From Candidatus Dadabacteria bacterium (lineage in GTDB: Bacteria; Desulfobacterota_D; UBA1144; Nemesobacterales; UBA2774), in assembly GCA_020849425.1 (NCBI GenBank), contig JADLGH010000084.1, forward strand, positions 1-61,963: 61,963 nucleotides of DNA, read 5' to 3'. Each line of letters starts with the position of its first letter. The first letter of the stretch is position 1. Below are positions 26,173 to 61,963 of this stretch, one piece after another. The position numbers and the translations under genes were made by a program. A model generated the notes under the pieces. The model saw nothing but the letters and a program-made list of their open reading frames with translations, was not told the origin of the DNA and made no database searches.

Positions 26173-26257
26173 TGCCGAAGGGGGGATTTGAACCCCCACG
26201 AGCTTTCACCCACTGGATCCTGAATCCAGCGCGTCTACCAAGTTCCGCCACTTCGGC
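26173..26257 (-). tRNA. tRNA-Leu (anticodon CAG)
   Basis: Folded by hand. Acceptor GCCGAAG/CTTCGGC, D arm GCG-GAACTTGGTAGA-CGC, anticodon arm CTGGA-TTCAGGA-TCCAG, long variable arm, T arm GGGGG-TTCAAAT-CCCCC, discriminator A. CCA is not encoded. Confidence 0.9.
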
Positions 26258-51569: not shown

Positions 51570-52202
51570 TGAGCGCGGGTATTCTGGAGAGAATAATATT
51601 CCGCCAGGCGGGAAGGGACGAGAGCAGGAGCATAGCCGGGCTTTTCGGCATGGCGTCCGACGGCGTGGCGGACTACGTATGGACGAAGTCCCTGAAGCCC
51701 GGTGAAGCCATATTGGACGCGGGGGAAAGACGGTACTCCTACGAAAGCTCGCCGTTCGGCTACAAGAATTGCACGGTCGCGGAATCAGGCGGAATGATCG
51801 CCGGAATGATGGCCGCTTTCCCCATGGACCATGCTGACGACCCCGGGACGAGCGGGGAGACCGATCCGGTCCTCGTTCCCTATAGCAGATTCGAACAGCA
51901 CGGCAGCTACTACATTTCCGGAATGGCCCTTTTCCCGGGTATCGGGGCATGGGCATAGGGACGAAATTCCTCGAAATCGCGGAGGAGAAGGCGGCCCTAT
52001 ACAACCTCCCCCGGTTGAGTCTCATATCATAGTCTTCGGGGAGAGCGAAGGCGCAGCGAGGCTATACAAGCGCCGCGGATTTTACGAGATCATGCGTGAG
52101 CCGGTAATACCGCACCCGCTTATAAAGCATTCCGGCATGGCCCTTCCGATTGTAAAAAACGTCATTCCGACCTGCGGGACTTTTCCTTCTTCGCCATCGT
52201 GA
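51569..52202 (+). pseudogene. GNAT family N-acetyltransferase disrupted by two frameshifts
   Basis: The frame changes 2-1-0. It reads ...SYYISGMALFPG | YRGMGIGTKFLEIAEEKAALYNLPRLSLI | VFGESEGAARLYKRRGFYEIM.... The second shift coincides with the tandem tcatatcata at 52022-52031. Confidence 0.65.
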
Positions 52203-53745
52203 TAAACAGCCCCGAGCCCTCTTTTTTGTCCTTGAAGAGCGCGAGCAAAACCTCGGCCTCGTGGAAGGGCATCGTCAGGAACGAGAATTTCTGGTGTATC
52301 TGGATGTCCGTTATGTTGTCCGGCGATATCCCGCTCTTCTCTTTTATGTAGCCGAGGAGCTTCTTCTTCGTAAGGCCGTCGCGCTTCCCGTGGGCGACGT
52401 AGAGGCGGGTCGTCCCCTTGTCGTCTATCTCGGCCGTGTCGCCGTCGCCGTTTTTCCTGTCGTCCCGGCCGAACGTGTGCTGGAGTAAGGACGCCACGAC
52501 GTCTTCGGCGTTCTTCTTCTTGAGGAGCTCTTTCGATAGCTCGAGGTAGTTGCCGTTACGCGCCGGCGCGTTTACGATTTTGTCTACCTCTTTCTTCGTG
52601 CGCTTACGCTCCTGAAGAACGGTGTCGGACTTAAGGGGGAGCTTGGCCTTCCGGATGTCCGTCTTGGCCTCTTTGGTTATGAATTTGAGCTTCCTGTATT
52701 CTTCGGGCGTTACGAACGTGACGGCGTTCCCCCCCTTGCCGGCCCTTCCGGTCCTTCCTATCCTGTGGATGTAGGCCTTGGGATCCTGCGGCAGCGCGTA
52801 GTTTATGACGTGCGTAAGGTCGTGCACGTCGAGCCCTCTCGCCGCGACGTCCGTCGCAACTAGGATGTTCACGCGCTTCTTCCTGAAGAGCGTGAGCATG
52901 CGCTCCCTCTGGATCTGGGACATGTTGCCGTGAAGGGCGCCCGCGTCGTACCCGCGCCGGCTGAGCTTGTTGGCGATTTTGTCGGCGTCGTGCTTCGTCC
53001 GGCAGAATACGAGGCCGTAAAAGTCGTCTTCCATGTCTATCAGGCGGCAGAGGGCCTCGAATTTATCGGAGTGCTTTACCTCGAAGTAGATCTGATCCGT
53101 GAGGCTCACCGTGAGCTGCTCGGACTCGACCTTGAGCTCGTCGTATTCGCGCATGTGGTTCTTGGCTATATCGACGATCTCGCGGGGCATCGTTGCCGAG
53201 AAAAGCATCGTTCTCTTGTCTTCGGGCGTATGGCTGAGTATTTCTTTCACGTCGTCTATGAACCCCATGTTGAGCATCTCGTCCGCCTCGTCCAGAATGA
53301 AATAGGAGAGCTTTCCGAGCGAGAGCGCGCCGCTCCAGATGTGGTCGAGCACCCTGCCCGGGGTTCCGACTACGATGTCGATGCCGTTCCGGAGGCTCCG
53401 CAATTGGAGGCTCATCGACTGCCCGCCGTATATGGGCACGATAGAGAGCTCCTTGTCGCCCTTGAGCGAGTTTATCTCCTCGGCGACCTGTATCGCGAGC
53501 TCCCTCGTGGGGGCGAGAATGAGCACCTGGACCTGGCCTGCGTTTTCCTTGATGAGCTCTATGAGCGGAACGCCGAACGCCGCCGTCTTGCCCGTGCCGG
53601 TTTGCGCCTGCGCCACGAGGTCCTTCGTGCTTCCGAGTAGTCCCGGTATTGTAAGTTCCTGGATTGGAGTCGGGGCTTCGAAGCCCTTCTTCTTGAGGGC
53701 GTTCAGCATGCCCTCGGATAAACCTAAATTGTCAAACGATTTCAT
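52162..53745 (-). CDS. DEAD-box ATP-dependent RNA helicase with a DbpA-type C-terminal RNA-binding domain
   Basis: Q motif, AQTGTGKT, DEAD, SAT and HRIGRTGRAG. The C-terminus reads TRLYVAHGKRDGLTKKKLLGYI. Confidence 0.95.
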   Translation of the reverse strand: MKSFDNLGLSEGMLNALKKKGFEAPTPIQELTIPGLLGSTKDLVAQAQTGTGKTAAFGVPLIELIKENAGQVQVLILAPTRELAIQVAEEINSLKGDKELSIVPIYGGQSMSLQLRSLRNGIDIVVGTPGRVLDHIWSGALSLGKLSYFILDEADEMLNMGFIDDVKEILSHTPEDKRTMLFSATMPREIVDIAKNHMREYDELKVESEQLTVSLTDQIYFEVKHSDKFEALCRLIDMEDDFYGLVFCRTKHDADKIANKLSRRGYDAGALHGNMSQIQRERMLTLFRKKRVNILVATDVAARGLDVHDLTHVINYALPQDPKAYIHRIGRTGRAGKGGNAVTFVTPEEYRKLKFITKEAKTDIRKAKLPLKSDTVLQERKRTKKEVDKIVNAPARNGNYLELSKELLKKKNAEDVVASLLQHTFGRDDRKNGDGDTAEIDDKGTTRLYVAHGKRDGLTKKKLLGYIKEKSGISPDNITDIQIHQKFSFLTMPFHEAEVLLALFKDKKEGSGLFITMAKKEKSRRSE

Positions 53746-53884: not shown

Positions 53885-53971
53885 AATTAACGGGGTTTCG
53901 CTAGAGGGAGTTTCCTGATAATGGAGAGATTCAAGAGATGGCAGAGCAAGCCGGGCGCGCCGGGGCGGATT

Positions 53972-54015
53972 TGACAGCCGACGATTTGGCGAATACAATT
54001 GAGAATCTTTCTCAT
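53972..54015 (+). promoter_or_regulatory. Promoter TTGACA-17-TACAAT followed directly by the Fur-family-type palindrome TGAGAAtctTTCTCA
   Basis: -35 at 53972-53977, -10 at 53995-54000, palindrome at 54001-54015 (7-1-7 reading: TGAGAAT c TTTCTCA). It lies about 45 nt upstream of the regulator ATG. Confidence 0.55.
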
Positions 54016-54057
54016 TTGAGTCGGGGCGGGTTACATAACAGCGGGTTACCATAGCAT

Positions 54058-54498
54058 ATGAAGGATAAAGTGTTTGCCAAGGGCCAGGACGGCATAAGGG
54101 ATATTTTTCACGCCCGGAAGCTGAAGTGTACGCCGCAGAGGCTTTCTGTATTCAAGGTCCTGGAAGAGAGCGAAACCTACCTTTCCATAAACAGCATACA
54201 CGCGAAGGTGAAGGCGCTATTGCCGGGTACGGGGCTTGCGACCGTGTACAGGTCGCTCGATACGCTTATAGACCTCGGCCTGGTAGTGAAAGTGCATCTG
54301 GAGGACGGGTGCCACAGCTACGCCGTCGCACCCGAGGGGCACAGGCACCCTATCGTGTGCACCGAGTGCAACAGGGTCATAGAGTTCGCCGAATGCCCGC
54401 TGGACAAGATATCGGAGAAGCTCTCGAAGGACACGGGAATAGAGATACAAAACCACTTCCTTCAACTATTCGGCAAGTGCAGGGGATGCAGCGCGTGA
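54058..54498 (+). CDS. Fur family transcriptional regulator (Zur/Nur/Fur-like; metal not assignable)
   Basis: 146 aa. Winged helix (TPQRLSVFKVLEE...LSINSIH), HxH region (PEGHRHPIVC), and two CxxC pairs (CTEC, CRGC). Confidence 0.9.
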   Translation: MKDKVFAKGQDGIRDIFHARKLKCTPQRLSVFKVLEESETYLSINSIHAKVKALLPGTGLATVYRSLDTLIDLGLVVKVHLEDGCHSYAVAPEGHRHPIVCTECNRVIEFAECPLDKISEKLSKDTGIEIQNHFLQLFGKCRGCSA

Positions 54499-54515
54499 AA
54501 AGGGGATCTTGACAC

Positions 54516-55226
54516 ATGTCTCACATACACATACCTGACGGTGTTCTCCCTTTATGGATAGTGGCCGCGGGATGGGTGGTCACCGCCCTCCTTCTCGCGC
54601 TTTGCATCCGGAGAGTGGATTCCGGGGACGTGAAGAGGAAGCTTCCCCTTATAGGGATAGTGTCGGCGCTGATGATAGCGGGCATGACGCTCGAAATAGT
54701 TCCGATCGCGTATCACATAAACCTGAGCATAATCGCCGGCATACTTCTCGGCCCGGCGCTCGCTTTCGTATCCGTATTTATCGTAGACCTCATAATATCG
54801 ATGTTCGGGCACGGGGGGATTACCGTCGTCGGGCTCAATACTATGGTAATCGGCGCGGAGGCCGTGCTCGGCTACTATCTTTTCCAGGCCTTCAGGACGG
54901 TCATGGCGGGGCGGCGGGCGGGATGGGCTTCGGCGCTCGCGGCCGTTATGAGCCTCTTTCTGAGCACTTCCATAATGCTGGGGGTAGTATACGTTTCGCA
55001 TATAAACCCTGCTGCGGCGCTCCACACGGAAGAGGCGGCCCACGATACCCACGGCGGGCCGGCCGGGGACGTGGAAACGGAGGGAGGCCTCGACTTCGGA
55101 AGGTTCGTAAAGACCATTTTTCTGCTTGCGCCGCTCGGATGGGCGCTCGAAGCCGCCGTCACGGGGCTCGTCGTGTCGTATCTCTACAGGGTGAGGCCCG
55201 ATCTCGTGGCCTCGGAGAAGACGTAA
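54516..55226 (+). CDS. cbiM: ECF transporter substrate-capture component, CbiM/NikM family
   Basis: HIPDG near the N-terminus (MSHIHIPDGVLP). 236 aa and polytopic. Sits next to cbiQ and cbiO. Confidence 0.85.
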   Translation: MSHIHIPDGVLPLWIVAAGWVVTALLLALCIRRVDSGDVKRKLPLIGIVSALMIAGMTLEIVPIAYHINLSIIAGILLGPALAFVSVFIVDLIISMFGHGGITVVGLNTMVIGAEAVLGYYLFQAFRTVMAGRRAGWASALAAVMSLFLSTSIMLGVVYVSHINPAAALHTEEAAHDTHGGPAGDVETEGGLDFGRFVKTIFLLAPLGWALEAAVTGLVVSYLYRVRPDLVASEKT

Positions 55227-55235
55227 GGAAATCGC

Positions 55236-56063
55236 ATGGACGTTTCGGCAATAGATTATTACGCAAATCACGGCGGGAGCTTCCTCCACAGGGCGTCCGC
55301 GCCGCCCAAGCTCGTCTTCGCCGGGCTCGTCATAGCATCCGTCGTCGTAACGAGGGATTTTTATTTCCTCCTCGGGGCGTACATCACGCTCGCGGCCCTC
55401 GTCTTCAGGACCGGCCTTCCGGCGCCGAGGGTCATAACGATCGCGGCTTACCCCGCGATATTCGCACTCATATTCGCAGCCGCAGGATGGAACGGCGACT
55501 GGATCGGCGCCGGGGTGATAATCTTGAAGGCGCTCACGGCCGCCCTCGCTTCGGTGATCGTAATAGTCACGACGCCGTACCCGGACGTGTTCGCGTCGCT
55601 CCGGCCGTTCTTGCCGAAGATCATAGCCGAGGGGCTTTTCCTTACTTACAGATCGCTCTTCCTGCTCCTTGACCTCATGGACAATCTACTTAAGGCGCTC
55701 AGGGTCAGGGGTGGTATCTCGCGGGGAAAGATCGTACGCAACGTCGTGAATTTTTCGTCCGGCATAGGGCTCCTGCTTGTGCGGGGGCTCGACATCTCGG
55801 AGAAGTTTTACGGCGTCATGAGGGTAAGGGGATATGACGGGAAATTATCCGGCGGCTACGTAAGGGGCGGAAGCCCGGCGTGCGGCGCAGGGGCGGTTTT
55901 GACAGGCGCGGCGATACTCGCGCTCGCGCTATCGATACGATACGAACCCGGGCTGGAATCGCTCGGAGTATACTTCGTCTACGCCGCCCTGCCCGCGCTG
56001 GCCCTGTCGGCCGCGTGGGGCCTTTATCCTAAATGGGAGGCCGAAGCATGGAAGAAATCGTAA
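55236..56063 (+). CDS. cbiQ: ECF transporter transmembrane (T) component, CbiQ/EcfT family
   Basis: 275 aa and polytopic. Two Arg-Gly coupling motifs (ALRVRGG, MRVRGY). Confidence 0.8.
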   Translation: MDVSAIDYYANHGGSFLHRASAPPKLVFAGLVIASVVVTRDFYFLLGAYITLAALVFRTGLPAPRVITIAAYPAIFALIFAAAGWNGDWIGAGVIILKALTAALASVIVIVTTPYPDVFASLRPFLPKIIAEGLFLTYRSLFLLLDLMDNLLKALRVRGGISRGKIVRNVVNFSSGIGLLLVRGLDISEKFYGVMRVRGYDGKLSGGYVRGGSPACGAGAVLTGAAILALALSIRYEPGLESLGVYFVYAALPALALSAAWGLYPKWEAEAWKKS

Positions 56064-56905
56064 GGATAAAGGACCTCGGCTTCAGATACCCGGACGGCAC
56101 CTCGCTCAGGTTCGAGGGCGAGGATTTTACTGTCCATAAGGGTGAGCGCGTGGTCATGCTCGGCCCGAACGGGAGCGGGAAGTCCACCCTGCTCTCTCTC
56201 TTGCTGGGTCTCCTCAGGGCTTCGGGCGGCGAGGTGGACGTCATGGGCGTAGACCCGGGAAAGGATTACGAGAAGGTGAGGGAGAGGATCGGCGCGCTGC
56301 TCCAGAACCCGGACCTTCAGATAATAGCGCCCAGGGTATGGGACGACGTGTCGTTCTCGGCGAGGAATTACGGGTACGGGAAGCAAAAGACCGACGAGCT
56401 CGTCGGCGACGTGCTGAAGCGGCTCGAGATCGAGCACCTTAAGGACAAGGTGCCGCATTACCTGAGCGGCGGCGAAAAGACGAAGGTCGCCCTCGCCGGG
56501 GCCCTGGTCACGAAGCCCGAGCTGCTGATACTGGACGAGCCGTTCGAGCACATAGACCCCATGTGCAGGACCGAGATGATAAGGCTCCTTAATTCGGTGA
56601 ACCGCGAGAACGGGACGGCTATAATATTATCGACGCACAACATGAACACCGTACCCCTCATCGCCGACACGGTTTATCTGATGGCGGTCGGGGGGAGGAT
56701 TGTTGGGAAGGGGACGCCGAAAGAGGTGTTCTCGATGACAGGCGCGCTCGCCGAATGTCACATAGAGCCGCCCGTCCTCGGGGAACTATTCGCCGAGCTG
56801 AAGAAGCTCGGGGTAGACCTCGACCCTTCGCTGAATATAAAGGACGCGGCTCTTACTATCGCGAATCATATGTTATCCTCTGAGGACAAGGCCGGGCACG
56901 GATAA
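56048..56905 (+). CDS. cbiO: ECF transporter ATPase, CbiO/EcfA family
   Basis: ATG at 56048 lies 7 nt after GGGAGG. GPNGSGKST, LSGGEKTKVAL and LLILDEP. Confidence 0.9.
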   Translation: MEEIVRIKDLGFRYPDGTSLRFEGEDFTVHKGERVVMLGPNGSGKSTLLSLLLGLLRASGGEVDVMGVDPGKDYEKVRERIGALLQNPDLQIIAPRVWDDVSFSARNYGYGKQKTDELVGDVLKRLEIEHLKDKVPHYLSGGEKTKVALAGALVTKPELLILDEPFEHIDPMCRTEMIRLLNSVNRENGTAIILSTHNMNTVPLIADTVYLMAVGGRIVGKGTPKEVFSMTGALAECHIEPPVLGELFAELKKLGVDLDPSLNIKDAALTIANHMLSSEDKAGHG

Positions 56906-57234
56906 TGGGCGCAACGAAGGCAAAGACAAAGAGAGTAAGCGCATTTTTCGCGGCGGCGTTCGCCCTCGTCTTCGTTTTATCCCTGAGCGTCCACAACCAC
57001 GGCTTCGGCCCCGAGACCGGCGTACGCATAACGAAGTCCGCCGGGCACATGGGGCATTCCGTAGAGCAGTGCTCCGCGTGCAGGCTCCACGGAAACCTGG
57101 AGCTTCCCGAAAGGGAAAACTTACCCGTCCTTATAGATTCACCAGTATTAATTTCTTTCAGCACAGACGCACCTTTGGTCCCGGCGTCTTTCCTGACGCT
57201 TTACAAATCGACGCGCTCACCTCCGCCCGCCTGA
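56905..57234 (+). CDS. Small membrane-anchored protein with His and CxxC motifs (DUF2946-like flavour), putative metal-handling accessory
   Basis: TAATG overlap with cbiO. One TM segment (VSAFFAAAFALVFVLSLSV), then HNHGF...HMGHSVEQCSACRLHG. Confidence 0.5.
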   Translation: MGATKAKTKRVSAFFAAAFALVFVLSLSVHNHGFGPETGVRITKSAGHMGHSVEQCSACRLHGNLELPERENLPVLIDSPVLISFSTDAPLVPASFLTLYKSTRSPPPA

Positions 57235-57428
57235 GCCGTATCGGCTGAGGAATCAAGCGGGCGAAAACTCGTAAGCATATCCGTATAGAAGGCGCCGTTC
57301 CGTCCGATCGGGACCGGCCCTCCGCTGCATATTCATACCGCGCGGGCTCGTACCGCCCGCACTCGCCCCTCTACCGATGCCGACGCGGCGCTCCGGAATT
57401 CATTCACAAAAAAATCTGGAGGTGAATA

Positions 57429-58811
57429 ATGAGCGTTGGAAGGATTGTAGCTGTGCTCGTGATTTCCCTGATCGCCTGCCATGCGTGGCCCCACACCGAG
57501 GCTTTCGCGCAGGGCGGCGAGGATATTCAGAAGGAGCTCGGCGAGCTTAAGCAGATGATGGAGAAGATGCAGAAGAGGATCGACGACCTCGAAGAGAAGA
57601 ACAGGGCGCTCGAGGCCGAGGTCGAGAGCCGCGAGTCAGAAGAAGAGGTCGTCGTAAAAGAGGAGACGGTTACGGTGCCCGCTTCGCCGTCGCCGGGCGA
57701 GCCGCAGGGCTTTCTGAGCAAGGTCGTCCAGTCGCTGAACCCGGAAATAAGCGTCGTGGCCATGATAACCCCTACGTGGTATTCGCTTAACGACCCCGTC
57801 GTATTCGCGCACAACGACCCCGAGAATACCGGCGTCAACATGCAGGAGGTAGAGGTCGGGTTTCAGAGCGTCGTCGATCCTTATTTCAGGTTCGATTCGT
57901 TCTTTTCGTTCAGCACGGAAGGCGTGGAGATGGAAGAGGCGTACGGCACAACACTCTTCAGCATGCCGCTTAACTCGCAGCTCAGGATCGGGCGTGCGAG
58001 GGCGAAATTCGGCAGGATCAACCAGATACACAGGCACGCGCAGAACTTCGTGACGCTGCCGATAGTCGTCGCGGAGTTCCTGGGAGAGCACCTTAACCCG
58101 ACGAGCGTCGAGGCGAGCTTCCTCGTCCCCGCGCCGTGGTACCTCGAGCTCAGCGCATCCGGCGGAAGCCCGGACGTCGAGACGCCGACGTTCGGCAGGA
58201 GCCCGGACGCCAACAACCTCGGGAACCTCCTCTACATATTCCACGTGGCCAACTTCTTCGACGTCGGCGAATCGCTCGGCGTGAGCCTCGGGGCGTCTTT
58301 CGCCACGGGCAGTAACGAGTCGGGGCCGGACGAGAGGTCCAGCCTTTACGGCGTCGATTTCTTCGCCAAGTACAGGCCGCTTAAAAATAACCCCTACCAG
58401 GAAGTATCTCTACAGTCGGAGTTCATGTGGAGACAGGCCGAGACACCGGAGGAGGAGCTGGAGGATTACGGGTTTTACGTCGAGGGGATGTACAGGTTCG
58501 CCAAGAGGTGGAACACCGGGCTCAGGTTCGATTTCACGGACACCCGGACGCCTATAGAGGAGCACGAAGACGAAGACCATGACCACGAGCACGAGGAGGA
58601 GGAAGACGAGCACGGACATTCGCACGACGATATTCTCGGGCTCATGGGAAGGGCGTACCGCATATCGCCCATGCTGACCTTCAGGCCGACGGAATTTTCG
58701 AGCATACGGCTCCAGTACGATTATCTGAACCAGGACTACGGGCCGAATCAGCATGCGGTATTCCTTCAGTTCCAGTACGCGATCGGGGCGCACGGGGCGC
58801 ACCCGTTTTAA
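57429..58811 (+). CDS. Putative outer-membrane beta-barrel (porin-like) protein with an N-terminal coiled coil and a His/Asp/Glu-rich loop
   Basis: Signal peptide, heptad-like aa 31-66, alternating amphipathic strands, the loop EEHEDEDHDHEHEEEEDEHGHSHDD (nt 58557-58631), and a terminal ...FLQFQYAIGAHGAHPF ending in Phe. Confidence 0.7.
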   Translation: MSVGRIVAVLVISLIACHAWPHTEAFAQGGEDIQKELGELKQMMEKMQKRIDDLEEKNRALEAEVESRESEEEVVVKEETVTVPASPSPGEPQGFLSKVVQSLNPEISVVAMITPTWYSLNDPVVFAHNDPENTGVNMQEVEVGFQSVVDPYFRFDSFFSFSTEGVEMEEAYGTTLFSMPLNSQLRIGRARAKFGRINQIHRHAQNFVTLPIVVAEFLGEHLNPTSVEASFLVPAPWYLELSASGGSPDVETPTFGRSPDANNLGNLLYIFHVANFFDVGESLGVSLGASFATGSNESGPDERSSLYGVDFFAKYRPLKNNPYQEVSLQSEFMWRQAETPEEELEDYGFYVEGMYRFAKRWNTGLRFDFTDTRTPIEEHEDEDHDHEHEEEEDEHGHSHDDILGLMGRAYRISPMLTFRPTEFSSIRLQYDYLNQDYGPNQHAVFLQFQYAIGAHGAHPF

Positions 58812-58835
58812 ATAATCGAGGAAAGGAGACGAACG

Positions 58836-59816
58836 ATGAAAATGTTTAAATCATTTCCCGGCCTCTTGTTTTTCATAGCGGCGGCGGCAGTAATGCTGCT
58901 CGCGGGCGGAAGCGCAGAGGCGAAGGTAAGGGTGGTCACGTCCACGCCGGACTTCGCGGCGATCGCGAGGGAGATAGGCGGTGACAGGGTAGACGTCGAG
59001 AGCCTATCCAAGGGTTACCAGGACCCTCACTTCGTAGACGCGAAGCCGATATATATAACGAGGCTCAACAGGGCGGACATTCTCGTATATAACGGCCTCG
59101 ATCTCGAGATCGGGTGGCTGCCCATACTCGTCACGGGCGCGAGGAATTCGGACATAGCCACTCTTAACTCCCCCGGGAACGTGGACGCTTCGAGGTTCCT
59201 GACATTCGTCCTCGACGTGCCTACCGGCCCTGTGGACAGGTCGATGGGCGACGTTCATCCGAGGGGGAATCCGCATTACATGCTCGACCCGCGAAACGGC
59301 CTCCTTGTAGCGAAGGGCATCACGGAGAAGCTCTCCGGGATAGACCCCGAGAACGCCGCGTATTACGAGGAGAATTACAGGAATTTCGAGAAGCTGCTAG
59401 AGACCAGGATTAGCGAATGGTCGAAGGAGCTGGCGCCGTACAAGGGGACCAAGGTCGTATCCTACCACAAGAATCTCGACTACTTCACGAGGTGGGCGGG
59501 ATTCGTGGACGCGGGATACGTAGAGCCCAAGCCCGGCATACCGCCGACGCCGTCCCACGTGGCGGCGCTCATAAAGAAGATGGAGGCAGAGGACGTGAAG
59601 CTCGTCCTGGCTTCGAACTTCTATCCGCAAAAGACCCCGAGGATAATTTCGGAGAAGACGGGAGCGGTGTTCCTGTCCATCCCGACGAGCGTCGGGGGTG
59701 AAGAGGGGATAAATACGTATTTCGACCTCTTCGACGCGATCGTCGGGCAGATAACCTCGGCCCTCGGGAGCGGGTCCGGGGCGGCGGGAAGTGGGAGCTC
59801 CATGCGGAACGGATAG
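58836..59816 (+). CDS. znuA: Metal ABC transporter substrate-binding protein, ZnuA/TroA (cluster 9) family
   Basis: Signal peptide. VVTSTPDFAAIAREIGGDRV...DPHF...HPRGNPHYMLDP. There is no long His-rich loop. Confidence 0.88.
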   Translation: MKMFKSFPGLLFFIAAAAVMLLAGGSAEAKVRVVTSTPDFAAIAREIGGDRVDVESLSKGYQDPHFVDAKPIYITRLNRADILVYNGLDLEIGWLPILVTGARNSDIATLNSPGNVDASRFLTFVLDVPTGPVDRSMGDVHPRGNPHYMLDPRNGLLVAKGITEKLSGIDPENAAYYEENYRNFEKLLETRISEWSKELAPYKGTKVVSYHKNLDYFTRWAGFVDAGYVEPKPGIPPTPSHVAALIKKMEAEDVKLVLASNFYPQKTPRIISEKTGAVFLSIPTSVGGEEGINTYFDLFDAIVGQITSALGSGSGAAGSGSSMRNG

Positions 59817-59828
59817 GGCATTATTCGC

Positions 59829-59872
59829 GGCGGCCCCCGGGATTCTTACCTCCCTACACTCCCGGGGCCGCC
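59829..59872 (+). promoter_or_regulatory. Intercistronic GC-rich stem-loop between znuA and znuC
   Basis: ggcggcccccggg pairs with cccggggccgcc (12 bp with one bulged C). The loop is 19 nt and no T run follows. Confidence 0.45.
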
Positions 59873-59888
59873 CGTTTCAAGGTGGAAA

Positions 59889-60641
59889 ATGAAGAAGCTT
59901 ATAAGACTGAAGGACGTTACGATAGGGTACGACGGGAAGGCCATCCTGGGCCCGGTCGAGCTTACCATCCGAAGAGGGGAATTCACCGGCATACTAGGGC
60001 CCAACGGCGGCGGGAAGTCTACCCTCCTTAAAACAATGCTCGGCCTCGTCCCCCCCGTTTCGGGCAGCGTGGACAGGGAGCAGGACATCGTTTTCGGATA
60101 CGTCCCGCAGAACGGGCATTTCGACCCGCTCTTCCCTGTGTCCGTCGAGGAAGTCGTTTCGATGGGCCGCTACGCGAGGGCGCCCGCCGGAAGGACGCTG
60201 TCGAAGGCGGACAGGGAATGCGTGGCCCGCTCGATGGAAATGGCCGGCGTGAGCCGCCTCGCAAGGAGGACGTTCCGGTCGCTCTCGGGCGGGGAGAAGC
60301 AGAGGACCCTCATAGCCCGCGCCGTCGCGGGTGAGCCGGACGCGCTCGTCCTCGACGAGCCGACGGCCGCCGTCGACGTCAGGGGCGAGGCCGCGATAAT
60401 GGAGCTCGTCGAATCGATAAGAAAGGAGAGCGGCGCGGCCGTGATAATGGTGAGCCACTTCCTGAGGACGGCTGCAAAGTACGCAGAGCGGATAATACTC
60501 GTAGACGCGGATAAAGGCGTCTTCCGGGAAGGCGCGAAGCCTGAGCTGATGACGAGCGGCGTCCTCGCCGATTTCTTCGGGTTTAACTTCGAAAGCGACC
60601 TCGACCCGCAAACAACCGGGCCCGGCGGAGGCGGCGCATGA
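59889..60641 (+). CDS. znuC: Metal ABC transporter ATP-binding protein (ZnuC-like)
   Basis: GPNGGGKSTLL, LSGGEKQRTLIARA and LVLDEPTAAVD. Confidence 0.92.
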   Translation: MKKLIRLKDVTIGYDGKAILGPVELTIRRGEFTGILGPNGGGKSTLLKTMLGLVPPVSGSVDREQDIVFGYVPQNGHFDPLFPVSVEEVVSMGRYARAPAGRTLSKADRECVARSMEMAGVSRLARRTFRSLSGGEKQRTLIARAVAGEPDALVLDEPTAAVDVRGEAAIMELVESIRKESGAAVIMVSHFLRTAAKYAERIILVDADKGVFREGAKPELMTSGVLADFFGFNFESDLDPQTTGPGGGGA

Positions 60642-61489
60642 TAACGTTCGGAGAATTCCTCCACAGCTATTTCCTCTGGCGGGACCCGATGCTGGTCGGC
60701 GCGGCCGCGGGCGCGATATGCGGACTCCTCGGCGTCTACGTCGTCTTAAGGCGAATAATTTTCGTGAGCGCCGCGCTTACGCAGGTGTCGAGCTTCGGTG
60801 TCGCGCTAACCTTTTACATTGAAGGGCTAGGCCTCGGGGCGCTTTCGGCGGCCGTGCATCCGTTCGCGCTGTCGATAGGGCTTACCGTAGCGGCGGCCGT
60901 ATTCTTCGCGCTTAAGAAGGACTACTCCCGCATAAGCAGGGAGGGGATCATCGGTTTCGGATTCCTCGTCGCCTCGGCGGCGGTCGTCATACTGGGGGAC
61001 CGCATAACGAAGGGCTCTCACGACATCGCGAGCATACTGTTCGGGAGCGCCGTCGTCGTCGCCCCCGAGGACGTATACATCATTCCTTCCATCGCCATAG
61101 CCGTCGGGGCCATACTGCTCATCTACATGAAGGACTTCGTATTCGTCTCGTTCGACGAGGAATCGGCGCGGCTTTTTAAATACCCGGTGCGGGCGCTTAA
61201 CGCGGGGCTCATGGTGATGATAGCCGTCGTCGCCGCAGCGGCGACAAGGGCCCTGGGCGCCTTGCCGGTCTTCGCGTTCCTGGCGCTGCCGCCGCTCGCG
61301 GCGCTTTATTTCACAGAGAGATTAAAGCTTGTATTCATACTCTCGGCGGCGATGGGGGTTCTGTCCGCCGTGCTCGGATACTTTTTTTCGTTCGTGCTGT
61401 CGTTACCCACGGGCGCATCGATGGCGATGTGTGCGTGCGTATTTTTCATCGCGGGGCTCTCGTGGCGCGAGGTGCGTAAACGCGTCTGA
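60638..61489 (+). CDS. znuB: Metal ABC transporter permease (ZnuB-like, ABC-3 family)
   Basis: 283 aa and polytopic. ATGA overlap with znuC. Confidence 0.92.
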   Translation: MITFGEFLHSYFLWRDPMLVGAAAGAICGLLGVYVVLRRIIFVSAALTQVSSFGVALTFYIEGLGLGALSAAVHPFALSIGLTVAAAVFFALKKDYSRISREGIIGFGFLVASAAVVILGDRITKGSHDIASILFGSAVVVAPEDVYIIPSIAIAVGAILLIYMKDFVFVSFDEESARLFKYPVRALNAGLMVMIAVVAAAATRALGALPVFAFLALPPLAALYFTERLKLVFILSAAMGVLSAVLGYFFSFVLSLPTGASMAMCACVFFIAGLSWREVRKRV

Positions 61490-61505
61490 GCCGTGGAGGC
61501 AAAAA

Positions 61506-61963
61506 TTGAAAGGAATAATCCTGAATGGAAAGCGCGCCGGTGTCCTGTTCGCGGCGATCACGGCGGCGGTGCTCGCGGCCGGGTGCGGCGGGAAATACGA
61601 AGAGGCGGCGCGCGCCCTCGACTTCCTCAAATACGAATATTTCACGTGCACTGTCGTGAGGGTCGAGAGCGGGGACAGCTTCTTCTGCGAGCCGCCCGAC
61701 ATGAGCATGCTGAAAATAAGGCTCGCGGGGGTAGACATACCCCCGGACGAGGAAAGCGGGGCGAAGAAGTTCTCGGAATCGATCTTAAGGAGGGGGACGC
61801 TCGTTAAGGTGGAGACGGGAGAGTCGGTGGACGAGAGCGGAGGGCCGCTTAGCTACGTCTTCGTGCCGGGCGGAAAGATGCTGAACGTGCTGCTCGTCGA
61901 GAACGGCTACGCCGGGCCCGTGGCGGGAGAGCTCGACGAAAAATATAAAGACATATTCGTCGG
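61506..61963 (+). CDS. Thermonuclease (staphylococcal nuclease-like) lipoprotein, 3'-truncated by the window
   Basis: TTG lies 6 nt after GGAGG. Lipobox LAAGC. VVRVESGDSFF...IRLAGVDIPP...LSYVFVPGGKMLNVLLVENGYA. Not in the ORF track because no stop falls inside the window. Confidence 0.75.
   Translation, partial: MKGIILNGKRAGVLFAAITAAVLAAGCGGKYEEAARALDFLKYEYFTCTVVRVESGDSFFCEPPDMSMLKIRLAGVDIPPDEESGAKKFSESILRRGTLVKVETGESVDESGGPLSYVFVPGGKMLNVLLVENGYAGPVAGELDEKYKDIFV

Follow-up and report, generated by a model that had tools for sequence, protein, structure and literature searches.

The hallmarks of translation-arrest leader peptides of the CruR/CutF type (DUF2946-like), as described for CruR (PMC9426467), are an export signal, a CXXC motif, an RAPP motif three residues from the end, 45 intervening residues (±1–2) and a long intergenic region. 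For CutF, there is experimental precedent for the unmasking of a Shine-Dalgarno (SD) sequence by stalling. The related motif RSPP is partially permissive for arrest and is strongly avoided in proteomes (PMC12992588), but it is a weaker arrest motif than RAPP or RGPP. Among metal importers, characterised CbiM/NikM proteins of ECF systems carry only Co or Ni, and Ni-type ECF systems contain small extra membrane components such as NikL and NikK. ZnuA-family binding proteins serve zinc uptake but also carry Mn or Fe in some organisms. The locus analysed here combines elements of these systems in an arrangement that, as a whole, matches no described system. It is most likely a zinc-scavenging operon, in which a 109-aa ORF looks like a metal-sensing, ribosome-stalling leader peptide that gates an uncharacterised porin-like channel.

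Organization of the gene array

The analysed window is the whole 61,963-nucleotide stretch of contig JADLGH010000084.1 from a Candidatus Dadabacteria bacterium (assembly GCA_020849425.1). The initial annotation described ten same-strand genes behind one strong promoter/operator, and this observation was confirmed, including the gaps and overlaps between genes and every family assignment. The features are as follows (all on the + strand, except for the operator, which was not assigned a strand).

53971–53999 (+), sigma-70-type promoter: TTGACA (53971–53976), 17-nt spacer, TACAAT (53994–53999), matching 11 of 12 positions.
53997–54017, operator: 9-3-9 inverted repeat AATTGAGAA-TCT-TTCTCATTT, overlapping the -10 hexamer and the likely transcription start.
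54058–54498 (+), Fur-family metalloregulator (146 aa), probably Zur-like and autoregulated; PF01475 at 7.6e-29; followed by a 17-nt gap.
54516–55226 (+), CbiM-family ECF substrate-capture component (236 aa); PF01891 at 6e-36; 9-nt gap.
55236–56063 (+), CbiQ, the ECF T (transmembrane coupling) component (275 aa); PF02361 at 4.6e-19 and TIGR02454 at 2.7e-21.
56048–56905 (+), CbiO-type ECF ATPase (285 aa); TIGR04520 at 6e-63 and PF00005 at 7.5e-30; a 16-nt overlap with cbiQ if the ATG at 56048 is the start, and a TAATG overlap onto the next gene.
56905–57234 (+), 109-aa CruR/CutF-like leader (arrest) peptide.
57217–57225 (+), anti-SD sequence UCACCUCCG, formed by the Ser-Pro-Pro arrest codons.
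57235–57428 (+), 194-nt leader between the upstream ORF (uORF) and the barrel gene.
57416–57425 (+), SD region CUGGAGGUGA of the barrel gene (GGAGG at 57418–57422).
57429–58811 (+), 460-aa outer-membrane porin-like barrel; 24-nt gap.
58836–59816 (+), ZnuA-family periplasmic metal-binding protein (326 aa); PF01297 at 2e-50; 72-nt gap.
59828–59873 (+), GC-rich hairpin in the znuA–znuC gap.
59889–60641 (+), ZnuC/AztA-like ABC ATPase (250 aa); NF040873 (AztA) at 4e-55 and PF00005; ATGA overlap onto znuB.
60638–61489 (+), ZnuB-type ABC-3 permease (283 aa); PF00950 at 7.9e-40; 16-nt gap.
61506–61963 (+), TTG-started SNase-like lipoprotein (lipobox LAAGC, weak thermonuclease matches), cut off by the window end.

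The 109-aa and 460-aa proteins matched no Pfam or NCBIfam family. The array is not a chance juxtaposition, as the same nine-gene order is kept in related loci, here denoted L001, L003, L004 and L006, at 51–92% protein identity and with different flanking genes. The cbiO start at 56048 gives the same protein length as in L001. The palindrome TGAGAATCTTTCTCA at 54000–54014 is the only exact copy in the window, and the motif AATTGAGAA-N3-TTCTCAATT is conserved upstream of the fur-family gene in L001, L003, L004 and L006, while the surrounding DNA diverges. With the window, this makes five loci, each with one copy. Neither a second operator copy nor a convincing internal promoter was found, and the only internal sigma-70-like hit (57403–57430) overlaps the start codon of the 460-aa gene.

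The regulator contains two CxxC pairs, which form the structural Zn site, and D68/E82, C85, H95 and H97 are candidates for an N2OS sensory site, although this is an inference and sequence alone does not assign the protein to Zur, Fur or PerR. The CbiM protein is not accompanied by CbiN and has the unusual N-terminus MSHIHIPDG (MSHxHIPDG); about 90 of 120 homologues start with MSH[LMIF]H[IVL]PDG. Residues H3, H5, H67 and H99 are invariant or nearly so, and alignment to TtNikM2 (4M58) places I4 at M1 and H5 at H2, with FGDGG becoming FGHGG.

A porin-like family linked to ZnuA

The 460-aa protein belongs to a large, unannotated porin-like family with 2625 representatives. It has a signal peptide, a periplasmic coiled-coil helix (residues 30–71), ∼16 strands, a conserved FGRxNxxHxH motif in the long loop between strands 5 and 6 (residues ∼186–211), a His/Asp/Glu-rich loop between strands 13 and 14 (residues 379–401, nt 58563–58631) and the C-terminal motif GAHGAHPF. 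The AF2 model has a pLDDT of 69.9, and Foldseek matched it to MOMP, VhChiP, OprP/OprO, DcaP and AlgE at a probability of 1.0 and TM-scores of 0.4–0.65. The His/Asp-rich stretch, by which the initial annotation had characterized the barrel, is lineage-specific and present in 14 of 150 distant representatives, and the family-wide conserved histidines lie elsewhere.

An absence of conserved linkage between homologues of the 109-aa and 460-aa genes and metal transporters had been named in advance as an outcome that would speak against the array, but the linkage proved to be very strong. ZnuA lies immediately downstream of the barrel gene on the same strand in 79 of 80 loci from many phyla (out of at least 581 loci), at a median distance of about 7 nt, and a Fur-family gene is adjacent in several other phyla. 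The barrel with ZnuABC is therefore not peculiar to this locus but is a widespread conserved module. The unit uORF–porin–ZnuA–ZnuCB is an old module, to which this Thermodesulfobacteriota clade added Fur–CbiMQO.

A candidate arrest peptide and its pairing with a Shine-Dalgarno sequence

The initial annotation treated the 109-aa ORF as an unassigned accessory protein with a transmembrane segment, histidines and a CxxC motif. Its architecture is instead that of CruR/CutF-type arrest peptides, with a TM anchor at residues ∼14–29, H30-N-H32, H48, H51, C56-S-A-C59 (nt 57070–57081) and R104-S-P-P107 (nt 57214–57225), followed by two more codons and the stop. The spacing between CxxC and RxPP is 44 residues here (the family hallmark is 45±2), and in about 20 loci from Thermodesulfobacteriota, Binatia, Nitrospirota, Aquificota, Planctomycetota and others the CxxC-to-R[ASG]PP spacing is 44–46 residues, with 1–7 residues after the motif. 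In other phyla the peptide travels with the barrel and ZnuABC rather than with CbiMQO, and it sits directly upstream of the barrel in loci that lack CbiMQO. Four of these peptides gave full-length sub-threshold hits to PF11162. However, the window peptide itself does not match PF11162, and a profile–profile comparison between the window clade and the distant leader peptides was not significant, so kinship rests on architecture and not on detectable homology. The 194-nt leader that follows contains a C-rich, G-poor stretch (∼57305–57385), and a C>G bubble is also seen in the 3′ half of the uORF (57105–57205). The same bias appears in L003, L004, L006 and a further locus, L007, and resembles the rut region of cruR. 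No Rfam family matched the leader.

The arrest codons (UCACCUCCG) are complementary to the SD sequence of the barrel gene and form a 9-bp duplex with 57417–57425 at -15.8 kcal/mol. This pairing closes the minimum-free-energy fold of the whole gap here and in 10 of 17 loci, whose leaders range from 44 to 198 nt, and it recurs with compensatory changes in distant phyla. The observed duplexes are more stable than synonymously recoded ones (Fisher p = 4.6e-6 over 17 loci). In the anchored alignment, 63% of cells are paired, compared with 54±1.9% in shuffles (0 of 500 reach the observed value), the covariation score is 0.21 against 0.10, and slid registers give 38–48%. On the other hand, 7 of 17 loci show no pairing between arrest codons and the SD sequence, and the fold of the window leader as a whole is not more stable than shuffles (z = -1.47). 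Pro-Pro codons are intrinsically CCN-CCN, so some complementarity to GGAGG comes for free; the recoding test addresses this only partly, and the loci are not phylogenetically independent. The pairing nevertheless extends beyond CCUCC into flanking positions that covary, namely CCUCCAAU/AUUGGAGG, GCACCUCCUGU/ACAGGAGGUGU and GCUCGCCUCCG/CGGAGGUGAGC.

Proposed two-layer control and alternative readings

With moderate confidence, we favor a zinc-starvation operon with two layers of control. In the first, a Zur-like Fur-family repressor encoded by the first gene would bind the 9-3-9 palindrome overlapping the -10 hexamer of the only promoter and shut off the whole array when cytoplasmic metal is sufficient. 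In the second, the 109-aa leader peptide, translationally coupled to cbiO, would be inserted into the membrane co-translationally, and the ribosome would stall on R-S-P-P two codons before the stop. It would thus cover the Ser-Pro-Pro codons, which otherwise pair across the 194-nt leader with the SD sequence of the barrel gene, so that stalling frees the ribosome-binding site and probably also blocks Rho from loading on the C-rich leader, allowing the porin and ZnuABC to be made. Binding of metal to the nascent His/Cys cluster (HxH, H48, H51 and CxxC), held at a fixed 44-residue distance from the arrest site, would relieve stalling; the ribosome would terminate, the anti-SD:SD helix would re-form and the distal half of the operon would be silenced. 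In this view, the products form a complete envelope-spanning route, comprising a porin-like channel with conserved histidines in its constriction-type loop and at its periplasmic C-terminus, ZnuA with a 3-His zinc site, the ZnuBC importer and, in this clade, a second inner-membrane importer, the CbiN-less ECF CbiMQO, whose capture subunit has extra invariant histidines (H3 and H99). Our analysis establishes the gene content, the conservation of gene order, the operator footprint, the motif architecture and spacing, and the complementarity with its covariation, while the transcriptional layer, stalling itself, zinc as the metal, the direction of the metal effect and the substrate of CbiMQO are inferred, and no experimental data exist for any member of this barrel family or for these leader peptides. 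The zinc assignment rests on the ZnuA 3-His site, the Fur-family context and the candidate N2OS site. The interpretation in the initial annotation is thus partly supported: a single regulator-headed metal-acquisition array joining an ECF CbiMQO module, a porin-like barrel and ZnuABC, without a second operator and without a described counterpart, was correctly recognized, and of the two alternatives it offered, one long transcript or regulation by unrecognised elements, the latter is the better reading.

Among the alternatives, the one that survives best, although we consider it unlikely, is that the array serves another metal, either as a Mn/Fe or Ni/Co starvation operon under a Fur/Mur/Nur-like regulator or in a mixed form, with CbiMQO importing Ni or Co and the barrel and ZnuABC importing Zn. 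Besides the known substrates of CbiM/NikM, this is suggested by the regulator, which by sequence is closest to Fur and PerR and not to characterised Zur proteins (its best NCBIfam and PDB matches are PerR, Fur and Nur) and whose box resembles no published Zur box, and by ZnuA, whose best PDB matches by score are the Mn proteins PsaA and MntC and which lacks a long His-rich loop. However, in the alignment to PsaA, His67 aligns with His, His139 with His, Glu205 with His and Asp280 with Ser, which gives the ZnuA-type 3-His set in place of the Glu and Asp of the Mn-binding protein. The regulator has a Cys in the hinge β-hairpin where V. cholerae Fur has Lys, lacks most of the Fur His/Asp ligands, and its candidate N2OS site contains Cys, the Zur hallmark. 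No B12 riboswitch was found, and the CbiM N-terminus differs from the MH- motif that Ni/Co coordination requires. CbiM-family genes also recur beside ZnuA-barrel modules together with a COG0523 GTPase; in Bradymonadales, a COG0523 GTPase and a His-rich permease sit next to a CbiM gene in a related cluster.

A somewhat less likely possibility is that the 109-aa protein is a stable, membrane-anchored periplasmic metallochaperone or accessory subunit, either standing in for CbiN/NikL with the ECF module or acting as a partner of the barrel, which would bind metal through its His/Cys residues and hand it to a transporter, with no regulatory role for RSPP. Its overlap with the cbiO stop codon, which couples it translationally to the ECF genes, its TM anchor and conserved His/Cys residues, the extra components of Ni-type ECF systems and the absence of CbiN are consistent with this. 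However, the same kind of peptide precedes the barrel in phyla with no CbiMQO, and only the motifs and their spacing are conserved between phyla, a pattern typical of arrest peptides and not of folded chaperones. In addition, the R[ASG]PP motif always lies 1–7 residues from the stop and 44–46 residues from CxxC, and codon choice at the motif is biased toward pairing with the downstream SD sequence.

The least likely reading is that of two or three independent transcription units, with an unrecognised promoter in the long 194-nt gap (non-sigma-70 promoters would not have been detected), perhaps termination at the znuA hairpin, and a codon–SD complementarity that is a by-product of CCN codons, a view compatible with the leader's lack of significant fold stability and the seven loci without pairing but opposed by the absence of a second operator or a sigma-70 match with usable geometry, by the covarying flanking positions and recoding test, and by long gaps after the leader gene being a family trait of CruR-type systems. 

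The hairpin in the znuA–znuC gap has no U tract and an energy of -31.9 kcal/mol but a z-score of only -1.15, and may be an mRNA stabiliser or partial attenuator. It is lineage-specific, being conserved with a compensatory G-C to A-U change in L001 and absent in L003 and L004. The terminal SNase-like lipoprotein gene is present in L001 and L003 but absent in L004, and is not part of the conserved core.

Gene array, operator and flanking genes

The ten ORFs of the array, their common strand, and every gap and overlap recorded in the initial annotation are present, so the observation itself held. The interpretation was supported only in part, as the 109-aa product, listed there as an unassigned accessory protein, is read here as a leader peptide, and the barrel gene proved to be linked to ZnuA in many phyla. 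Profile searches, which had been proposed as a check, confirmed FUR, CbiM, CbiQ, an ECF-type ATPase, ZnuA, an AztA/ZnuC-like ATPase and an ABC-3 permease, and the 109-aa and 460-aa products match no curated family. The ZnuA-family binding protein, permease and ATPase of the ZnuABC importer are encoded together (PF01297 at 2e-50, PF00950 at 7.9e-40, PF00005 at 2.2e-25 and an AztA-like match at 4e-55), as are the CbiM, CbiQ and CbiO components of the ECF module (PF01891, PF02361/TIGR02454 and TIGR04520). Homologues come from Thermodesulfobacteriota metagenome-assembled genomes. The features with positions in the window that are discussed below are:

26173-26257, minus strand: tRNA gene
52162-53745, minus strand: DEAD-box helicase with a DbpA-type C-terminal domain
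53971-53999: promoter TTGACA-17-TACAAT
54516-55226: gene of the CbiM-family capture component
57217-57225: Ser-Pro-Pro codons of the 109-aa ORF, UCACCUCCG
57416-57425: ribosome-binding site of the barrel gene, CUGGAGGUGA
59828-59873: GC-rich hairpin between znuA and znuC
61506-61963: TTG-started lipoprotein with weak thermonuclease/SNase similarity

The promoter is the best sigma-70 match in the region, and the palindrome next to it is unique in the window. A search of the window and of 84 loci with up to 3 or 2 mismatches found no second operator, and no usable internal promoter was found, as the only internal hit overlaps the start codon of the barrel gene. No terminator-like site lies in the two gaps. 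There are no Rfam matches in the cluster, even at E ≤ 1, and the tRNA gene is the only Rfam family reaching its gathering score anywhere in the 62-kb window.

The order Fur-CbiM-CbiQ-CbiO-small ORF-barrel-ZnuA-ZnuC-ZnuB is kept in relatives whose proteins are 51-92% identical, and at least one of them, the locus L004, has entirely different flanking genes. Upstream of the regulator gene, all of these loci carry AATTGAGAA-N3-TTCTCAATT (9-3-9) overlapping the -10 hexamer, in one copy per locus, while the surrounding DNA has diverged. This is a phylogenetic footprint of an autoregulated operator. Its position, at the promoter of an operon that contains znuABC, is that of a Zur operator, but its sequence is unlike published Zur boxes. 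The arrangement resembles the classical Zur-ZnuABC operons, for example zur-znuABC of Geobacter sulfurreducens and znuABC-zur of Desulfovibrio (PMC545781), in which a Fur-family regulator shares an operon with ZnuA, ZnuC and ZnuB, a palindromic operator sits at the promoter and ZnuA has a 3-His site. It differs from them in the operator sequence, in the extra porin-like outer-membrane gene, leader peptide and ECF module, and in a ZnuA without a His-rich loop.

The lipoprotein (lipobox LAAGC) follows znuB after 16 nt. It is present in L001 (the closest relative, GCA_964618635.1) and in the relative L003 but missing in L004, so it is not core, and why a nuclease would ride on a metal-uptake operon is unexplained. 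In L001 the same-strand array continues past the SNase-like gene (L001:14608-19971; beyond the window end at 61963) with an ABC ATPase, a MacB_PCD/FtsX permease, a 149-aa protein and a DUF3299 protein, followed by a second Fur-family gene on the opposite strand. This resembles the Zur-regulated PA4063-PA4066 operon of P. aeruginosa (PMC8561739), and the window may be cut in the middle of a larger zinc island. A few kb downstream of the cluster, L003 (16888-17127) and L004 (20314-20553), with otherwise different flanks, both carry a gene for ribosomal protein L28. Zur regulons often include zinc-free ribosomal-protein paralogues, although whether this copy lacks the zinc ribbon or carries an operator was not examined. 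On the other side of the array, the DEAD-box helicase is divergently transcribed from the same 312-nt intergenic region, a synteny kept in L001 and L003 but not in L004. Several genes with IPTL-CTERM sorting signals flank the cluster in L003 (1114-2917 and 19794-20990).

The hairpin between znuA and znuC is real but no more stable than shuffles, and it has no U tract. It is conserved only in the closest relative, L001, with one compensatory G-C to A-U change, whereas L003 and L004 have only 39- and 27-nt gaps without it. We treat it as peripheral. Its 17-nt loop contains ACCUCC, another anti-SD-like string.

Predicted outer-membrane barrel and its linkage to ZnuA

An exhaustive phmmer search with the 460-aa protein found 2,625 representative clusters, 192 of them below 1e-30, and all named members are "hypothetical protein". 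No significant match to a known porin family (Porin_O_P, OMP_b-brl, general porins) was obtained, as the Pfam hits reach only E ≈ 0.008-0.01, far below the gathering scores, and NCBIfam gave nothing relevant. The features conserved across the family are an FGRxNxxHxH motif and a C-terminal GAHGAHxF. The His/Asp/Glu-rich stretch highlighted in the initial annotation (residues 379-401) occurs in only 14 of 150 distant representatives, and it was not used as evidence for zinc.

The AlphaFold model, whose confidence is only moderate (pLDDT 69.9), comprises a signal peptide, a long N-terminal helix (residues 30-71) and 16 strands. The conserved HxH motif is located in the long loop between strands 5 and 6, which, as inferred from strand order, is the position of the constriction loop in classical porins, and the acidic/His stretch is located in a disordered loop between strands 13 and 14. 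In agreement with a 16-18-strand β-barrel fold, Foldseek matched specific and general porins (MOMP, the chitoporin VhChiP, OprP, OprO, DcaP and AlgE) at probability 1.0 but with modest TM-scores of 0.4-0.65. The fold and size resemble 16-18-strand specific porins such as OprP/OprO and DcaP, and the N-terminal coiled coil resembles that of DcaP. Like ZnuD, the protein would be a dedicated outer-membrane component co-regulated with zinc import. However, in contrast to ZnuD, ZnuK and other TonB-dependent receptors, it is not TonB-dependent, as there is no plug domain and it has ~16 strands in 460 aa, and it has its own signature motifs. ZepA, a Zur-regulated exoprotein that was also considered, has a different fold and family and is unrelated.

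Absence of conserved linkage between homologues of the 109-aa and 460-aa genes and metal transporters had been named beforehand as grounds for refuting the array, and this test did not refute it, as the linkage is very strong. An alignment of 49 barrel sequences was too divergent for locus retrieval, so a narrower one was used. A scan of one genome per species found at least 581 loci. In the best 80 of these, a ZnuA homologue lies on the same strand directly downstream of the barrel in 79, at a median distance of about 7 nt, and ZnuC and ZnuB usually follow. The phyla include Myxococcota (with cultured Corallococcus, Myxococcus and Pyxidicoccus), Sericytochromatia, Binatia, Aquificota, Nitrospirota, Planctomycetota and Methylomirabilota. 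The barrel is therefore the conserved outer-membrane partner of a ZnuABC-type importer, a functional linkage in which we have high confidence, and CbiMQO is an addition specific to the Thermodesulfobacteriota clade. Many Myxococcota loci insert an extra gene of about 286 aa between znuA and znuC (L013:10145-11005 in Corallococcus coralloides and equivalent positions), which encodes a lipoprotein with a CHNGHCH motif, matches no Pfam family and may be another periplasmic metal-handling component.

How zinc crosses the outer membrane is well described only for TonB-dependent receptors in a few pathogens, and for most Gram-negative bacteria the route to ZnuA is simply assumed to be general porins. 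A dedicated porin-like family attached to znuA in many phyla, including cultivable Myxococcus and Corallococcus and Sulfurihydrogenibium, would fill that gap and is directly testable.

The 109-aa ORF as a candidate arrest peptide

A sequence search with the 109-aa protein found only 11 close homologues, all of 109-110 aa, and the equivalent 112-113-aa genes in L003 and L004 align with it. Invariant features are an N-terminal hydrophobic anchor, HxH immediately after the anchor, H-S-x-E-x-C-S-x-C, and a C-terminal K-x-[ST]-R-S-P-P followed by two residues. The anchor consists of a Lys/Arg-rich N-terminus followed by ~16 hydrophobic residues (AFFAAAFALVFVLSLSV); it was read directly from the sequence, without a topology predictor, and is conserved in the alignments. 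The CxxC motif, C56-S-A-C59, is invariant in 12 close and 3 more distant homologues, and RSPP occupies residues 104-107 of 109. Similar small ORFs lie directly upstream of the barrel in loci without CbiMQO, including Binatia, Nitrospirota, Desulfarculus, Aquificota and Planctomycetota. CxxC is present in all ~20 leader peptides from other phyla, and these loci have RAPP, RGPP or RSPP 1-7 residues from the stop. The distance from CxxC to R[ASG]PP is 44 residues in the window and 44-46 in nearly all loci, with one at 48.

These are the defining features of the DUF2946 protein CruR (Bp2923) of Bordetella pertussis, a copper-responsive upstream ORF that controls the TonB-dependent transporter BfrG (PMC9426467). 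CruR also has a 162-nt intergenic region, and it exerts copper-dependent control of the downstream outer-membrane transporter through relief of translation arrest and Rho-dependent termination. Shared with CruR are a small exported or anchored peptide, a CxxC motif, an RAPP-type motif 2-3 residues before the stop, about 45 residues (±1-2) between the two motifs, a long intergenic region before an outer-membrane uptake gene, C>G-biased RNA near the 3' end and, in our model, the logic by which uptake genes are off when metal is present. However, the motif here is RSPP rather than RAPP, a His-rich segment precedes CxxC, and the downstream genes are a porin-like barrel plus zinc-type ZnuABC rather than a copper TonB-dependent transporter. 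RSPP is reported as partially permissive for arrest, not optimal, and is among the most avoided tetrapeptides in bacterial proteomes. CruR-type peptides are also the first gene of their operon, followed by a long intergenic region and a same-strand metal-homeostasis gene. The long gap (194 nt) and the downstream metal-uptake genes are found here, but in this clade the peptide is the fifth gene and is translationally coupled to cbiO, which it overlaps, whereas in other phyla it heads barrel-ZnuA-ZnuCB, so that gene position speaks neither clearly for nor clearly against the assignment.

CutF of Rhodobacter capsulatus (cutFOG; PMC9973294) belongs to the same family as CruR, and there, as more generally in SecM, MifM and VemP, stalling unmasks a Shine-Dalgarno sequence that is otherwise shielded by RNA pairing. 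In CutF the anti-SD lies in a local stem-loop between the genes, the motif is CxxxC rather than CxxC, and a detoxification enzyme is switched on when copper is present, whereas here an uptake system should be switched off by metal. At the sequence level, the window peptide has no hit to the Pfam model PF11162 even at E ≤ 10. Four of the distant leader peptides give full-length but sub-threshold matches of 17-21 bits against a cut-off of 23.7, and a profile-profile comparison (hhalign) of the window clade with the distant peptides is not significant. We therefore claim likeness of architecture and mechanism, not proven homology, and hold the leader-peptide reading with fairly high confidence. 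Eleven of 17 peptides have at least three histidines in the 30 residues before CxxC. His plus Cys suits zinc, although this is an inference.

The Ser-Pro-Pro codons UCACCUCCG are complementary to CUGGAGGUGA, and this helix closes the minimum-free-energy fold of the whole 194-nt leader. The same long-range pairing appears in the minimum-free-energy folds of 10 of 17 loci, whose leaders range from 44 to 198 nt. Flanking positions change in a compensatory way, for example CCUCCAAU/AUUGGAGG in L004 and L006, GCACCUCCUGU/ACAGGAGGUGU in Sulfurihydrogenibium, and GCUCGCCUCCG/CGGAGGUGAGC in L007 (L006 and L007 are further barrel loci). Two tests support selection for the pairing. When synonymous codons were resampled with each locus's own usage, the observed duplex was more stable in nearly all loci (Fisher p = 4.6e-6), although the loci are not independent and this overstates significance. 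In a pseudo-alignment anchored on the Pro codons and on GGAG, 63% of cells pair against 54±1.9% in shuffles (0 of 500 reach the observed value), the covariation score is 0.21 against 0.10, and slid registers give 38-48%.

A ribosome arrested with the two Pro codons in its P and A sites would cover this anti-SD and free the ribosome-binding site, which is the SecM/MifM/CutF logic, the difference being that here the arrest site and the anti-SD are the same nucleotides. Such pairing was not described for CruR, whose mechanism is Rho-dependent. We have moderate confidence in the anti-SD mechanism, for which complementarity and covariation give indirect support; stalling at the motif and metal-dependent control of the downstream gene were not measured here. 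The 3' half of the uORF and part of the leader are C-rich and G-poor, here and in four relatives, in a genome whose coding strand is otherwise G-rich, as described for the rut region of cruR (PMC9426467), and Rho-dependent termination may therefore contribute as well.

Metal-sensing arrest peptides (CruR, CutF) are a recent discovery and are so far tied to copper, and neither the CruR paper, the CutF paper nor the RAPP survey mentions zinc, ZnuA or porins. A zinc-linked branch with a different RNA read-out would show that nascent-chain metal sensing is a general regulatory principle, and it would offer a compact, portable metal switch.

Metal assignment and the ECF module

In the alignment to PsaA, the binding protein keeps both histidines (His67 and His139), has His in place of Glu205, the Glu of Mn proteins, and has Ser in place of Asp280, which gives the ZnuA-type three-His set, although metal preference itself was not assayed. 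The regulator has the FUR domain and the structural Cys4 site, made of two CxxC pairs. It has a Cys (C85) where V. cholerae Fur has Lys, and it lacks most Fur ligands. Characterized Zur sensory sites are N2OS with one Cys, and C85, H95, H97 and D68/E82 are candidate ligands, based on position and on the alignment to V. cholerae Fur. However, no alignment to a Zur structure was obtained, and NCBIfam and PDB searches were not decisive, with higher scores for Fur and PerR, so these features leave the placement of the regulator in the Zur branch undecided. Fur-family genes flank the barrel-ZnuABC module in several other phyla. None of this proves zinc, and all characterized CbiM proteins carry Ni or Co, but we consider zinc the metal of the system with reasonable confidence.

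The module shares with the group I ECF metal transporters CbiMNQO and NikMNQO the CbiM, CbiQ and CbiO families, their gene order, and the PDG motif and His67-equivalent residue of the capture subunit. However, no CbiN, NikN, NikK or NikL gene is present in the window cluster or in L001, L003 or L004, and control is by a Fur-family operator rather than by a B12 riboswitch or NikR. The Met1-His2 N-terminus (MHIxEG/MHIPDG) that supplies the metal ligands is also absent. The N-terminus is MSHIHIPDG, and the variant MSH[LMIF]H[IVL]PDG is conserved in about 90 of 120 homologues, while the 27 that start MHIPDG may be short gene calls. When CbiM is aligned to TtNikM2 (4M58), Ile4 takes the place of Met1 and His5 that of His2, the His67 equivalent is kept, and FGDGG becomes FGHGG, with H99 invariant. 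In NikM2 the free amine of Met1 and His2 bind nickel. Two or three extra N-terminal residues with an added invariant His therefore imply a different coordination sphere. A zinc substrate for CbiMQO is plausible but untested, and we give it at best an even chance.

Taken as a composite, the explanation is held with moderate confidence. What is new relative to the described systems is a CruR/CutF-like arrest peptide in a zinc-type uptake operon with a distinctive RNA read-out, an unannotated porin family tightly coupled to ZnuABC, and a CbiM variant under Fur-family control. A literature search for a zinc porin or a Zur-regulated CbiM/ECF zinc transporter found none in the collection examined. 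A CbiM variant under Zur-like control would extend ECF transporters beyond nickel and cobalt. In a more far-reaching reading, which is possible but which we do not favor, the 109-aa ORF would be the first zinc-sensing translation-arrest peptide, with an unusually economical design in which the arrest codons themselves are the anti-Shine-Dalgarno sequence. It would gate a previously unrecognized, phylogenetically widespread family of zinc-specific porins that act as the outer-membrane partner of ZnuABC, and the co-operonic CbiN-less CbiMQO, with its MSHxH N-terminus, would be the first zinc-specific ECF transporter.

CbiM-family genes recur beside the barrel-ZnuA module in two other groups. In a Bradymonadales MAG (L047:9094-17000), a differently organized cluster has the order barrel, unknown lipoprotein, ZnuA, ArsP_1 permease with a His-rich tail (DHDHHHNGHCDHEHNDHSHH), Fur-family gene, MerC-like protein, CbiM with canonical MH- start, further ECF genes and COG0523 (CobW-type) GTPase. 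In a Thermodesulfovibrionales MAG (L062:2196-6936), a CbiM-PDGLE fusion protein (349 aa) lies directly upstream of a leader peptide (RAPP, 44-residue spacing), the barrel, ZnuA and ZnuB, with no CbiQ or CbiO nearby, and in this locus the arrest codons are not predicted to pair with the Shine-Dalgarno sequence. Within the window CbiM, the loop before the last transmembrane helix (residues 166-200) is acidic/His-rich (HTEEAAHDTHGG). This loop is not conserved and was not used as evidence for zinc. It is hypervariable in length and sequence across the subfamily, in which other members carry 8-residue insertions, and no function is evident.
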